Shown: positions 56,523 to 59,500 of the stretch, piece after piece
How the letters are laid out: each line of letters starts with the position of its first letter
Numbering within the stretch: the stretch's first letter is position 1
Source: an uncultured Actinomycetes bacterium
Lineage (GTDB): Bacteria; Actinomycetota; Acidimicrobiia; Acidimicrobiales; JACCXE01
Direction of reading: 5' to 3'
Length of the DNA stretch: 64,000 bases
Assembly: GCA_963769985.1 (NCBI GenBank)
Contig: CAVYNR010000012.1
Location: 162,135 to 226,134, forward strand
Position numbers and translations under genes: made by a program
Notes under the pieces: model-generated
Databases searched by the model: none
Told to the model about the DNA's origin: nothing
Seen by the model: the letters and a program-made list of their open reading frames with translations, nothing else

Positions 56523-59500
56523 CCGATCTGCCTCCCGACGAGCCGTCGGACGACCAAGAAGACGAGATCACCGAAGAGGCCGCGCTCGACCTGTCTGCCG
56601 ACTTCGTCGGCGGCATCGAAGAGATCGACATTCAGGAGGAGCTGGAGCGCTCCTTCCTCGAGTACGCGATGTCGGTCATCGTGTCGCGCGCGTTGCCCGA
56701 CGCGCGCGACGGCCTCAAGCCCGTGCACCGCCGAATTCTGTGGGGCATGCACGACATGGGGGCGCGCTCGGACCGTCCCCGCATGAAGAGCGCCCGCGTG
56801 TCGGGCGAGGTCATGGGTAAGTACCACCCGCACGGCGAGAGCTCGATCTACGACGCGCTCGTACGCATGGCGCAACCGTTCTCGCTGCGCGATCCGCTGA
56901 TCGACTTCCACGGAAACTTGGGATCTCCCGACTTCCCGGCGGCGGCCTCGCGCTACTGCGTCACCGGCGACACGATCGTGCGCCTCGCGGATGGGACGTC
57001 GTTGCCGATCGCCGAACTGATCGATCTGCCGGCCGACAGCGAGCGCGACATTGACGTCGACGTGCTCGACAAGGACGGCAAGCCTGTCCATGCGTCGAAG
57101 GCATTCAACTCCGGGGTTCATCCCACGAAGCGGATAACAACCAAGAGCGGGTTCAGTCTTCGCGGCACCGAGAACCATCCCATTTTGTGCCTCGCGTCGG
57201 TCGCCGGCGTGCCGATGTTCCAGTGGCGGATGCTGGGCGAGATCCAAGAAGGTGAAGTCGCTTGTATCGCGCGGAATGCGTGGATGAATGTGATTCCCCG
57301 AGCGCGCGAAATGCAGCTTGGGCTGCTCTGCGGAGCGTGGGTTTCGGAGGGCTTCGCGTCAACTGGCCGCGCCGGCTTCAACAACACCGACTTCGAGTTC
57401 TTCGAGGAAGTCCTCGAGGCTTACGACGTCATCGTTGGCGGCTCGCGTTACGTCGCCAAGCGTGAAACCCGTGTCGATCGCAAGGCCATCTGGGAACTCG
57501 ACGTCCAGTACATGGATGCATTTGCGGCTGGTCCGCTTGGCGAACTGATCGGGAGCAAGGCCGCCGACAAGTTCATTCCTTCAGCGGTGTGGCGTGGCGG
57601 TTGGGGAGTTAAGCGCGCGTTCTTGATGGCGTGTTTCGAAGGGGACGGAGGGCCGCGCAAGTCCGCCGACAACGCGTTCACGATCCACTACACGACCTTC
57701 AGCGAACGGCTCGCGCAAGAACTTCAAGAGTTGCTCGCCGAGTTCGGCGTAATCGCGACGATCAGGCACTACTGGAAGGCGAGCGGCGCGAAGGAGTTTC
57801 GCCTCATCGTCAGCGGTCTTCGAAACGTCAAGGCGTTTGCCGAACGGATCGGGTTCCTTAAGACGAAGCAGCAGAGGCTTCACGAGCTAATCAGCCACGC
57901 CCCGGTGCGTCCTCATCGTTTGTCGCAGGATCACGCCCCCTTCGTCGCCGCCTTCGTCCGGGAGGAACTCGCTGAGCGGGGGCGCGGAAGCGGGCGGACG
58001 TGGCTGATGGCGCACAACTTCGATCGCATCGAACGGTGGGAAACCGAGCGACTCCGGATCATCGATCGCATCAAGGACCCGGAGATTCTGGCGACGATCC
58101 TGCCGATCATGGACTCGGGCTACCGATTCGAACAGATCGTTGCCGTTGTCGACGAGGATCCCGCCGAGGTCTATTCGCTGCGCGTGGACAGCGATGACCA
58201 CTCGTTTCTCGCAGGTGGGTTCGTCAATCACAACACGGAATGCCGTCTCGCGCAGTTGGCCAACGAGATGCTCGCCGGCATCGACGAAGACACCGTCGAC
58301 TTCGAGCCGAACTACACGAACGAGTTCGAGCAACCCACGGTCCTGCCGTCGCGCTTTCCGAACCTGTTGGTCAACGGCAGCCAGGCCATCGCCGTCGGCA
58401 TGGCCACCAACATCCCGCCGCACAACCTCGGCGAGATCATCGACGCGACGATCCACCTGATCGAGAATCCGCAGGCAACCGTCGAGGACTTGATGAAGTT
58501 CGTGCACGGTCCCGACTTCCCGACCGGCGGGTTGATTCTCGGCCGTGCCGGCATCCTCGACGCGTACCGCACGGGGCGCGGTTCGATCCGCGTGCGCGCC
58601 AAGACCGAGATCGAAGAAACGAAGAACGGCGTGTCGATCGTCGTCAGTGAGCTGCCATATCAGGCGTCGATCAAAGCGATCGAAACGCGCATCGCCGAAC
58701 TGGTCAACAACAAGGAACTCGACGGCATCCGCAGCCTCGACGACTTGTCCGCCGGAATCGACACGCGCCTGGTCATCGGTCTCAAACGCGACGCCAACGC
58801 ACTGGTCGTTTTGAACAACCTGTTCAAGCACACGCAGCTACAGACGAGTTTCGGCGTGAACATGGTGGCGCTGGTCGACGGCGTACCGCGCACGCTCAAC
58901 CTGGTGCAGGCGCTGCAGGCCTACGTAGACCATCAGGTCGACGTGATCACGCGGCGCTCCGAGTTCCGTCTTCGCAAGGCGAAGGACCGGGCGCACATCG
59001 TCGAGGGTCTGCTCAAGGCGCTCGACATGATCGACAAGATCATCAAGCTGGTGCGCGGATCAGCCGACCGCGCCGATGCCCGCACCGGCCTGATGGGCCA
59101 GGGCTTCGAGTTCTCCGAAATCCAGGCGAATCACATTCTCGACATGACGATCGGGCGTCTCACGCGCCTCGGTCGCACCGAGCTCGACGCCGAAATGGCC
59201 CAGCTGCGCGAGACCATCAAGGAGCTCGAGGACATCCTCTCGAAGCCCGAGGTGTTGCGCGGCGTCATCAAGACCGAGATGGGCGAGACCCGCACGAAGT
59301 TCGCCAGCGAGCGCCGTGCGATCATCACCCACGACCCGGGCGAACTCGGCGCGGAGGACTTCATCGACGACGAAGACCTTGTGTTCCTCATGACGCGCGC
59401 CGGCTACGTCAAGACCGTCGCCGCTGGTGCGTTCCGCACGCAGGGCCGCGGTGGTCGCGGCATCGCGGGAGCGAAGCTGAAGGAAGAAGACCTCGTCGCG

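Follow-up and report, generated by a model that had tools for sequence, protein, structure and literature searches.

The gyrA gene of the window (the whole 64,000-nt stretch of DNA analyzed) is interrupted directly after the codon for its catalytic tyrosine by an insert that is, with high confidence, best explained as a canonical class-1 intein that has a LAGLIDADG homing endonuclease embedded in it: splicing and homing are predicted for it, and its lineage appears to have been mobile recently. Selfish elements of this kind are well known; this one belongs to a lineage distinct from the classic mycobacterial inteins. The host is an Ilumatobacteraceae-like acidimicrobial actinobacterium, and its gyrA is chromosomal and oriC-proximal.

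Table 1. The gyrA precursor, its intein and the junction sequences (residue numbers are those of the intein)
Feature	Position	Strand	Basis and details
gyrA precursor ORF	56519..60337	+	1272 aa plus stop; ORF list
N-extein, 146 aa, ending ...AAASRY	56519..56956	+	ends in the active-site tyrosine of gyrase; placed by alignment with solved GyrA chains
Intein, 426 aa (Cys1 ... His425-Asn426)	56957..58234	+	sequence; Pfam, NCBIfam and PDB matches; AlphaFold model; Foldseek
N-terminal splicing (Hint) subdomain, residues 1-110	56957..57286	+	block A (Cys1), block B (T71-E-N-H74, 57167-57178)
LAGLIDADG homing-endonuclease core, residues about 116-300	57302..57856	+	two alpha-beta-beta-alpha-beta-beta-alpha halves; Pfam, AF2, Foldseek
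LAGLIDADG motif 1, L121-G132	57317..57352	+	sequence; putative catalytic residue E131 (...VSE131-G)
LAGLIDADG motif 2, A221-G232	57617..57652	+	sequence; putative catalytic residue D230 (...EGD230-G)
Four-helix region following the endonuclease core, residues about 303-372	57863..58072	+	AF2 model
C-terminal splicing subdomain, residues 373-426	58073..58234	+	block F (D411, H415), block G (H425-N426)
C-extein, 700 aa plus stop, Thr+1 first (TECRLAQ...)	58235..60337	+	sequence, in silico splicing, structure alignment
Intein-free junction, window gyrA			CCGGCGGCGGCCTCGCGCTAC / ACGGAATGCCGTCTCGCGCAG
Lentzea paralog, RY/TE site			GGACCGGCCGCGAGCCGGTAC / ACCGAAGCGCGCATGTCGCAC

The host gene and the insertion site

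The gyrA reading frame opens with an ATG that shares bases with the gyrB stop codon (ATGA), and it matches Pfam DNA_topoisoIV (E=1.4e-141) together with six DNA_gyraseA_C repeats. That the host is a true gyrA follows from its place in a dnaA-dnaN-recF-...-dciA-gyrB-gyrA cluster and from the score of the host protein against the NCBIfam gyrA equivalog NF004043, 1060.6 bits, which passes the cut-off of 902. (A technical note: the long frame had earlier been counted at 1271 codons; the frame is as described and the count is 1272 sense codons, a trivial difference. The dnaB gene, at 6964-8328 (454 aa), is uninterrupted, as had also been stated. An Rfam scan of the window finds tRNA-Ile alone, and no RNA element is involved. 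Two minus-strand reading frames lying over the intein, at 57581-57883 and 57887-58831, were set aside as spurious, of the sort that high-GC DNA commonly yields.)

The insert is 1278 nt long, that is, 426 in-frame codons. It begins with TGC (Cys1, 56957-56959) and ends with CAC-AAC (His-Asn, ending at 58234), and the host frame resumes with ACG (Thr+1) at 58235; the interval that the earlier note had assigned to the intein, 56957-58234, is exact to the codon. The final residue of the N-extein aligns with the Y of AAAMRYTE in solved GyrA chains, and it is the gyrase catalytic tyrosine, corresponding to E. coli Y122. Insertion directly after it, at RY/TE (the slash marks the point of insertion), is at the "gyrA-a" site; the proposal that this is the site of the mycobacterial GyrA inteins is confirmed, along with homology to the M. 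xenopi (Mxe) GyrA mini-intein. Removing the insert in silico yields an 846-aa GyrA reading ...AAASRY/TECRL..., so that the AAxRYTExRL gyrase motif is restored, as the earlier note had it, and the spliced protein is colinear with solved GyrA structures, with no gap at the RY-TE junction (E about 5e-93).

The splicing domain

By its residues, by its Hint fold and by the colinearity of the host protein after its removal, the insert is a class-1 intein; splicing itself is predicted. The residues are Cys1, T71xxH74 (in GTENHP), D411/H415, H425-N426 (in the terminal GGFVNHN) and Thr+1. All of those named beforehand (Cys1, TxxH, His-Asn and Thr+1) are found, and among 82 aligned relatives they are invariant except at position 71, which is T or S in every one: Cys1 is retained in 82/82, and H74, H415, H425 and N426 do not vary. 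Comparison of the 426 residues with profiles and known GyrA inteins, a check that had been proposed for this insert, gives the Mxe GyrA intein as a PDB match (E=5.3e-33, aligned at residues 2-109 and 373-426, the two splicing halves), NCBIfam GyrA_w_intein over the intein segment (E=1.3e-117) and, in the endonuclease region, LAGLIDADG_3. Taken separately, the N-terminal subdomain matches residues 3-111 of the Mxe intein at E=5.8e-24 and passes NCBIfam intein_Nterm (36.7 bits; cut-off 24.5); the C-terminal subdomain aligns with Mxe residues 146-199 and passes intein_Cterm (16.0 bits; cut-off 15.6). The score for Pfam Intein_splicing, 34.7 bits, is marginally below its cut-off of 35.8. The AlphaFold (AF2) model of the intein has a pLDDT of 93, and Foldseek superimposes it on the Mxe GyrA intein (1am2) with a TM score of 0.88, normalized to the target.

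Residues, fold and colinearity are seen directly in this gyrA intein; the splicing chemistry would be that of its family. Translation would yield a 1272-aa precursor, in which Cys1 would undergo an N-S acyl shift assisted by T71 and H74; attack by Thr+1 would generate a branched intermediate, to be resolved by cyclization of Asn426 with the assistance of His425. The expected outcome is a freed 426-aa intein and a ligated GyrA of 846 aa whose AAASRY-TE active site is native. The freed intein is predicted to cut DNA site-specifically, E131 and D230 being its putative metal ligands; its cut would fall across the RY/TE codons in gyrA alleles that lack the intein, into which recombinational repair is then proposed to copy it (homing).

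The endonuclease

The 263 residues between the splicing halves comprise a two-motif LAGLIDADG endonuclease and a helical region. The two LAGLIDADG-like blocks noticed earlier are borne out: Pfam LAGLIDADG_3 matches residues 218-299 (65.8 bits, cut-off 22.5; E=4.3e-18), and the motifs bearing E131 and D230 are both present. DSSP applied to the AF2 model reveals a duplicated alpha-beta-beta-alpha-beta-beta-alpha topology, and Foldseek matches the model to the TliVMA intein (7qss, E=3e-22), PI-PfuI (1dq3), PI-SceI (1vde), I-DmoI and I-SceI. The four helices that follow the core (residues 303-313, 330-339, 344-352 and 358-371; pLDDT 70-89) are missing in the Mxe mini-intein and may constitute an accessory DNA-binding region.

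Intact motifs are no guarantee of nuclease activity, and the endonuclease is, in that sense, a predicted one. Is it still in use? The alternative is that the intein splices but its endonuclease is inactive, a vertically inherited molecular fossil that is kept only because an insert in an essential active site is seldom deleted precisely. That reading deserves to be weighed, although we consider it unlikely. The Acidimicrobiia inteins and exteins have diverged to similar extents (dN 0.2-0.3 and 0.25-0.32, respectively), their branching orders are roughly compatible within that class, and endonuclease deletion variants exist among the relatives (L056, L034 and P0037; see below), all of which would fit a fossil. 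What argues against it is, firstly, that both catalytic acidic residues and their flanking glycines are intact and nearly invariant: E131 and G132 are retained in 81/81 full-size relatives, D230 in 80/81, and G229 and G231 in 81/81. Secondly, dN/dS for the endonuclease domain lies between 0.06 and 0.24 in the family, comparable to the splicing domain (for example, 0.078 for the unsaturated pair L024/L025). This comparison is based on closer pairs within the family, not on pairs that include the window, for which dN/dS is rough and unreliable because dS to the nearest relatives exceeds 1 (saturation). Thirdly, the domain is modeled as a complete and confidently folded two-lobed nuclease. Fourthly, the family is polymorphic for presence and absence of the intein at nearly the species level.

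(Co-conversion tracts and DNA-level conservation of the target were also sought: in different hosts the 21-nt flanks agree at 8-17 of 21 positions, essentially only those constrained by the amino-acid sequence, and are uninformative about the specificity of the nuclease.)

Patchiness and probable mobility

The last of these points can be put in numbers. Among the 120 closest extein homologues (70-80% identity; Acidimicrobiales and Ilumatobacteraceae), 118 have an uninterrupted RYTE, and the carriers are scattered among empty lineages in the extein tree; one pair that differs, L002 (with intein) and P0177 (empty), is 98.3% identical over 581 extein residues. The relatives also include three shortened inteins (L056, 366 aa; L034, 381 aa; P0037, 358 aa) and one with a D230Y substitution (L079), which are decay forms expected of a homing cycle. 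The empty sites, the close pair with and without the intein, the low dN/dS of the endonuclease and the conservation of E131 and D230 together point to probable recent or ongoing homing. Patchy distribution in very close relatives, purifying selection on the endonuclease and the crossing between gyrA and its paralog that is described below indicate likewise that the lineage has probably been mobile recently. The window copy taken by itself could be an old vertical resident with losses elsewhere, since intein and extein divergences within the Acidimicrobiia are similar. The earlier note had called the intein probably splicing-competent and perhaps still mobile; that judgment, to be read with the same "probably" and "perhaps", is now backed by the empty sites, by purifying selection on the endonuclease and by the incongruence of intein and extein phylogenies.

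Might the intein instead be maintained by its host? Conditional splicing, sensitive to redox state or metals, has been proposed for mycobacterial DnaB, RecA and SufB inteins (PMC7360933, PMC11377839), and one can imagine the gyrA intein co-opted in like manner as a conditional post-translational switch for gyrase, retained by the host rather than by homing. Besides that literature, the position of the insert beside the catalytic tyrosine of an essential enzyme, which must leave unspliced precursor inactive, and purifying selection across the entire element could be cited in its favor. We nevertheless regard co-option as improbable: 118/120 of the closest relatives do without the intein, host benefit leaves unexplained the conservation of the catalytic residues of the nuclease and the transfer to a paralog, and the sequence bears no specific sign of a sensor. 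Finally, that the insert is a retained, unspliced domain or an assembly or chimeric artefact is effectively refuted: the exact 1272-aa protein is without a record in the public gene-position collection, but the set of splicing residues is complete, homologous inserts (C...HN/TE after RY) occupy the identical codon in 80/80 inspected genomes, the insert would part the catalytic Tyr from the remainder of the active site, and reading frame and flanks are seamless.

Lineage and probable crossing between host genes

Relatives of the intein are encoded in at least 501 species genomes, and the kind is therefore common (a 2015 survey listed 50 GyrA inteins in four phyla; PMC4760082). The best identities to other sequences are 73-76% for the window intein and 80% for its extein. 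The window intein is 69-75% identical to Acidimicrobiia gyrA inteins, 65-70% identical to those that a gyrA paralog carries in Lentzea, Actinokineospora, Kutzneria, Micromonospora and others, and only 40-48% identical to the canonical actinomycete gyrA inteins and the Mxe mini-intein. Against NF038098 (GyrA_w_intein) the whole protein scores 1408.8 bits, below the cut-off of 1850, and the intein segment 394 bits, compared with 642-660 bits for canonical actinomycete gyrA inteins. Having missed that cut-off, the window intein is homologous to the curated, mycobacterial-type family yet stands outside it, and as judged by sequence it is a sister lineage.

The paralog C-exteins are only about 39% identical to the window GyrA, to be set against about 69% for the inteins, which argues that the intein has moved horizontally between host genes. 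Spirilliplanes, with one copy of each gene, verifies the paralog status: one of them, L019, scores 715 bits, under the 902-bit gyrA cut-off, and lies beside a divergent B subunit; the other, L069, scores 1217 bits for the gyrA equivalog and lies beside a true gyrB. Neighbor-joining trees, built from the best 80 of at least 501 loci, disagree accordingly: a clade of Acidimicrobiia gyrA inteins with Pseudonocardiaceae/Micromonosporaceae paralog inteins has 100% bootstrap support in the intein tree, whereas in the extein tree the paralogs form a clade of their own (100%) and their grouping with Acidimicrobiia gyrA has 0%. Between the window and Lentzea, dN is 0.26 for the intein and 0.60 for the extein. 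These comparisons indicate that the lineage has probably passed between gyrA and the topo-IV-like paralog, an A subunit found in other actinobacterial orders. A literature search, of incomplete coverage, found no paper on inteins in ParC/topoisomerase IV.

A more ambitious scenario, toward which we lean slightly, has the endonuclease of this lineage recognizing a site conserved in two paralogous type-IIA topoisomerase A subunits, with at least one jump between the topo-IV-like paralog (Actinomycetes) and true gyrA (Acidimicrobiia), across bacterial classes; homing would be ongoing in environmental Ilumatobacteraceae, and a second, mycobacterial-type lineage would occupy the same gyrA codon in genomes that carry this lineage in the paralog (e.g., Spirilliplanes L019 and L069). 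Finding the mycobacterial type in gyrA where the window lineage sits in the paralog would suggest competition or exclusion between intein lineages for the site.

Base composition

The insert had been described as visibly richer in A/T than the surrounding gyrA. That holds at third codon positions (GC3 is 77.2% in the intein and 87.6% in the exteins, and host windows of 426 codons span 81-90%, leaving the intein outside), but overall GC is just 3 points lower (61.3% against 64.4%). The A/T enrichment is thus mainly a third-position effect, and it is common to most of the intein family: over 80 loci, intein GC3 averages 6 points under that of its own exteins and is lower in 63/80, the deficit being largest and most consistent in the window intein's own lineage. 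Being so widespread, the deficit is a property of the element and carries no dating signal for the window copy; low GC3 as a sign of recent arrival in this genome was rejected on the same ground.

Significance

GyrA inteins, known since the 1990s, are widely used as tools of protein engineering. Current understanding is not overturned by the window intein; as an intact, full-size member of a separate lineage, it could supply a new LAGLIDADG nuclease with a target spanning the gyrase active-site codons, and the gyrA/paralog pair offers a natural case for examining the tolerance of homing endonucleases for target drift between paralogs. There is also a practical consequence: the gene should be annotated as an intein-containing precursor whose mature product is 846 aa long, rather than as split genes or a 1272-aa enzyme. 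For relatives, many MAG records are truncated or mis-called where the intein lies.

Relation to known systems

The nearest well-known systems are the mycobacterial GyrA inteins (the M. xenopi mini-intein, PDB 1AM2/4OZ6; the full-size inteins of M. leprae, M. kansasii and M. flavescens; NF038098, "intein-containing DNA gyrase subunit A"). They share with the window intein the host gene, the RY/TE site, Cys1, Thr+1, TxxH and a C-terminal ...HN; homology extends over both splicing halves of the Mxe intein (see above) and, in the NF038098 profile, through the endonuclease region as well (model positions 117-537). Besides the lower identity and profile scores given above, the differences are an acidimicrobial rather than a mycobacterial host, and an ending in GFVNHN in place of the GFVSHN of mycobacterial-type GyrA inteins. 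Outside the Acidimicrobiia, the closest are the Pseudonocardiaceae/Micromonosporaceae paralog inteins (e.g., Lentzea L009-L012, Spirilliplanes L019; 65-70% full-length identity), which share its architecture and the homologous RY/TE site and group with it at 100% bootstrap, but are housed in a topo-IV/ParC-like A subunit that falls under the gyrA cut-off and has a divergent B-subunit partner. More distantly, PI-SceI, PI-PfuI, PI-TkoII and TliVMA/PhoVMA likewise have a two-motif LAGLIDADG nuclease set into a Hint domain (Foldseek E=3e-22 to 1e-14), but are only 12-18% identical, reside in other host proteins and have other target sites; helices 303-372 of the window intein are not obviously equivalent to the DNA-recognition region of PI-SceI or the stirrup of PI-PfuI.

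The gyrA locus and its interruption

ORF, profile and RNA scans place gyrA within a standard actinobacterial replication-origin cluster (see the table). Within this otherwise conserved cluster, recF and dciA are separated by a gene for a 303-aa protein, predicted to be secreted, in which a long linker rich in Ser and Thr joins a neocarzinostatin-family domain to a LysM domain at the C-terminus. Two ORFs elsewhere in the window are also unusual: one joins thioredoxin-reductase-like (Pyr_redox_2) and thioredoxin domains, and appears to be a TrxB-TrxA fusion; the other has a MurJ flippase domain only at residues 431-842 of its 862, and its ~430-aa N-terminal extension, for which there is no Pfam match, may come from an ORF called too long in high-GC DNA.

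Features of the window, of its intein, and of two inteins of Spirilliplanes yamanashiensis NBRC 15828
Feature	Position	Remark
MurJ-domain ORF	34291-36879 (+)	862 aa
Thioredoxin reductase/thioredoxin ORF	41064-42494 (+)
dnaA	49204-50652
dnaN	50860-51957
recF	51965-53065
LysM/neocarzinostatin-domain protein	53134-54045 (+)	between recF and dciA
dciA	54056-54394
gyrB	54486-56522
gyrA ORF	56519-60337	1272 aa
Four-helix region of intein	57863-58072	intein residues 303-372
DUF3566 protein and tRNA-Ile(GAT)		origin cluster, listed after gyrA
LAGLIDADG motif 1	intein residues L121-G132	E131
LAGLIDADG motif 2	intein residues A221-G232	D230
Locus L019 intein	4001-5284	lineage A, in topo-IV-like paralog
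Locus L069 intein	4001-5260	lineage B (mycobacterial-type), in true gyrA

Both junctions can be read in the DNA: the host codons GCC TCG CGC TAC (A-S-R-Y) run into TGC at 56957, and AAT CAC AAC, ending at 58234, is followed by ACG GAA TGC (T-E-C). The insert is accordingly of the size and limits given in the earlier note, 1278 nt or 426 codons, and its deletion restores the gyrase motif, as was also claimed: removal in silico yields an 846-aa GyrA, in which a 228-aa stretch spanning the spliced junction can be aligned over its whole length to solved GyrA structures (E ~5e-93), RYTE over RYTE and gap-free at the junction. The description of the insert as lying "next to" the catalytic region is right as to location but understated. 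In the alignment, the tyrosine preceding the insert is that of the AAxRYTE active-site motif (E. coli Tyr122); the insert therefore parts the catalytic residue from the residue after it.

Identity and domain structure of the intein

By three independent sequence tests the insert is an intein with a homing endonuclease. Profiles for both parts match: Pfam LAGLIDADG_3 (E=4.3e-18, residues 218-299), NCBIfam intein_Nterm (36.7 bits; cut-off 24.5), intein_Cterm (16.0 bits; cut-off 15.6), and, for NF038098, the family of intein-containing DNA gyrase A subunits, its intein segment at model positions 117-537 (E=1.3e-117). Pfam Intein_splicing reaches 34.7 bits over residues 10-426, slightly below its 35.8-bit cut-off. 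A PDB sequence search finds the Mycobacterium xenopi GyrA (Mxe) mini-intein (1AM2, 4OZ6; E=5e-33), with one match at residues 2-109 and another at 373-426, the pattern expected if the splicing halves of a mini-intein were split by a 263-residue endonuclease insert. The class-1 splicing residues are present in full (C1, T71, H74, D411, H415, H425, N426 and Thr+1), and C1, H74, H415, H425 and N426 do not vary across 82 aligned relatives. Of the 81 relatives of full size, all keep E131 and 80 keep D230.

An AlphaFold2 model built from 25 homologs is confident (pLDDT 93.1, pTM 0.92) and combines a Hint domain rich in beta strands with two alpha-beta-beta-alpha-beta-beta-alpha units, each bearing a LAGLIDADG motif on its first helix, and with a four-helix region at residues 303-372. 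Endonuclease-bearing inteins rank highest in a Foldseek search of the PDB (TliVMA, 7qss, E=3e-22, TM 0.66; also PI-PfuI, PhoVMA, PI-SceI and PI-TkoII), with free-standing LAGLIDADG enzymes below them; Mxe 1AM2 matches the splicing domain of the model with a TM of 0.88. The four-helix region, which follows the LAGLIDADG core and precedes the C-terminal half of the splicing domain, may on the model be an accessory DNA-binding module. The whole model also matches WhiA (LAGLIDADG plus HTH; 3hyi, 8dy9_I).

Two intein lineages

With each species represented by one genome, a scan found at least 501 genomes that encode a relative; in each of the best 80 loci, which were retained, the element lies between RY and TE. 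The hosts are mainly Actinomycetota (Ilumatobacteraceae, Pseudonocardiaceae, Micromonosporaceae, Nocardioidaceae, Jiangellaceae, Thermoleophilia), but also include Dormiibacterota and one MAG each under the labels Deltaproteobacteria and Armatimonadetes. An earlier survey had listed 50 GyrA inteins in Actinobacteria, Aquificae, Chloroflexi and Proteobacteria (PMC4760082). GyrA inteins are a well-known kind, with a host range beyond mycobacteria.

On sequence comparison the family is made up of two deep lineages. Lineage B (terminus GFVSHN) comprises canonical-gyrA inteins of Actinomycetes and Thermoleophilia, together with the Mxe mini-intein; its members are 40-48% identical to the window intein, and their intein segments score 642-660 bits against NF038098, compared with 394 bits for the window. 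Lineage A (terminus GFVNHN), to which the window intein belongs, includes 1) Acidimicrobiia gyrA inteins (69-75% identity to it) and one Dormiibacterota gyrA intein; 2) inteins of Lentzea, Actinokineospora, Kutzneria, Umezawaea, Prauserella, Micromonospora, Actinoplanes and Spirilliplanes (65-70%); and 3) those of Nocardioidaceae and Kribbella (56-61%) and one Jiangellaceae MAG (50%). Residues -3 to -1 are mostly (S/A/E)RY before the lineage-A inteins of Acidimicrobiia gyrA and the Pseudonocardiaceae/Micromonosporaceae paralog, and MRY before Nocardioidaceae lineage-A inteins and lineage-B inteins; empty Acidimicrobiia sites read ERY, QRY or SRY. Co-conversion or splice-junction compatibility could account for this pattern.

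The insert had been called visibly richer in A/T than its surroundings: the difference is real (GC 61.3%; exteins 64.4%) but modest. At third codon positions GC is 77.2% compared with 87.6% in the exteins, and is below the 81-90% spanned by host windows of the same size. Could this deficit date the insertion? It cannot, because it is common to most of the element family: in 63 of 80 loci the intein has a lower GC3 than the exteins around it (the mean difference over the loci is -6 points, the largest -18), most markedly and steadily in the lineage-A members listed.

A paralogous host and transfer between genes

The second and third groups of lineage A reside in a gyrA paralog, a topo-IV-like A subunit, and not in gyrA. 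Their C-exteins are only ~39% identical to the window GyrA (the exceptions, 56% and 52%, are two loci with C-exteins cut short), and the host's status is established in S. yamanashiensis, which carries both genes. Spliced, its L019 scores 715 bits against the gyrA equivalog cut-off of 902 (NF004043), is recognised only by the generic model of the type-IIA subfamily, and has directly before it a B subunit that scores below the gyrB cut-offs; spliced L069 scores 1217 bits and directly follows a bona fide gyrB. In this strain, two paralogous topoisomerase A subunits each carry a full-size intein, at the homologous RY|TE codon. Lentzea and Micromonospora also have both kinds, in genomes of different species.

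Bootstrapped neighbour-joining trees of the best 80 of at least 501 loci (with an Mxe sequence, also used in the alignment, that agrees with the PDB alignments) conflict. The intein tree gives 100% support to lineage A and to a clade of Acidimicrobiia gyrA plus Pseudonocardiaceae/Micromonosporaceae paralog inteins, and 0% to a clade of all paralog inteins; the extein tree gives 100% to the paralog clade and 0% to the mixed one. Between the window and Lentzea, dN is 0.26 for the intein and 0.60 for the exteins. Judged from these sequences, tree conflict and lower intein dN require that the intein was transferred horizontally at least once between gyrA and the paralog, across actinobacterial classes, in either direction.

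Evidence bearing on mobility

The classical homing cycle consists of invasion, fixation, decay and loss. Five lines of sequence evidence fit it. 1) The 120 closest homologs listed for the spliced junction (70-80% identical; the named ones mostly Acidimicrobiales, Ilumatobacteraceae or Actinomycetota) have an uninterrupted RYTE in 118 cases, the other two not covering the site; database matches are mostly fragmentary MAG proteins. 2) Placed in an extein tree, those Acidimicrobiia that carry the intein (the window and loci L001-L005, L007 and L056) are singly dispersed among empty-site lineages. 3) The exteins of two Ilumatobacteraceae MAGs, one with the intein (L002) and one with an empty site (P0177), are 98.3% identical over 581 residues, which is close to a within-species polymorphism. 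4) Endonuclease-domain dN/dS is 0.06-0.24, similar to that of the splicing domain; unsaturated pairs give 0.078 (L024/L025), 0.088 (L009/L011) and 0.084 (L022/L031). 5) Loci L056 (366 aa) and L034 (381 aa) and protein P0037 (358 aa) have internal endonuclease deletions, and in L079 the catalytic Asp is replaced (D230Y); these are decaying copies, and look like intermediates toward mini-inteins such as Mxe GyrA. The evidence argues for a nuclease functional now or recently in the window intein's lineage, a lineage-level claim rather than proof for this copy.

The three deletions span 45-68 residues and remove part of the endonuclease, in P0037 the entire LAGLIDADG motif 1. Public intein-bearing MAG gyrA entries (P0001, P0004, P0012, P0013, P0053) are often truncated, frameshifted into GC-rich nonsense, or called as a stand-alone 439-aa "protein" starting MRY-C; the faulty entries look like artefacts of assembly or gene calling in the region of the intein.

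Proposed mechanism and comparison with known inteins

The element is in frame, with all splicing residues, a motif restored on removal, comparative signatures of mobility and a predicted Hint plus LAGLIDADG fold. By analogy with its family, Cys1 would undergo an N-S acyl shift, the chain would be transesterified to Thr+1, and Asn426 would cyclise, an O-N shift then giving the 846-aa GyrA in its mature form. The reaction is probably efficient, because this gyrA is canonical and origin-proximal and the insert disrupts its active site, although the genome may encode another type-IIA topoisomerase beyond the window. The freed intein would probably cleave empty RY|TE alleles by means of E131 and D230, leading to gene conversion.

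The earlier finding, a gyrA split by a full-size intein, is correct, and the comparisons support its interpretation as probably splicing-competent and perhaps mobile. The window intein is a further example of a well-known kind, and its added interest is modest: the family bears clear signs of recent homing, and the element belongs to the lineage that elsewhere occupies the topo-IV-like paralog, not to the mycobacterial GyrA-intein lineage.
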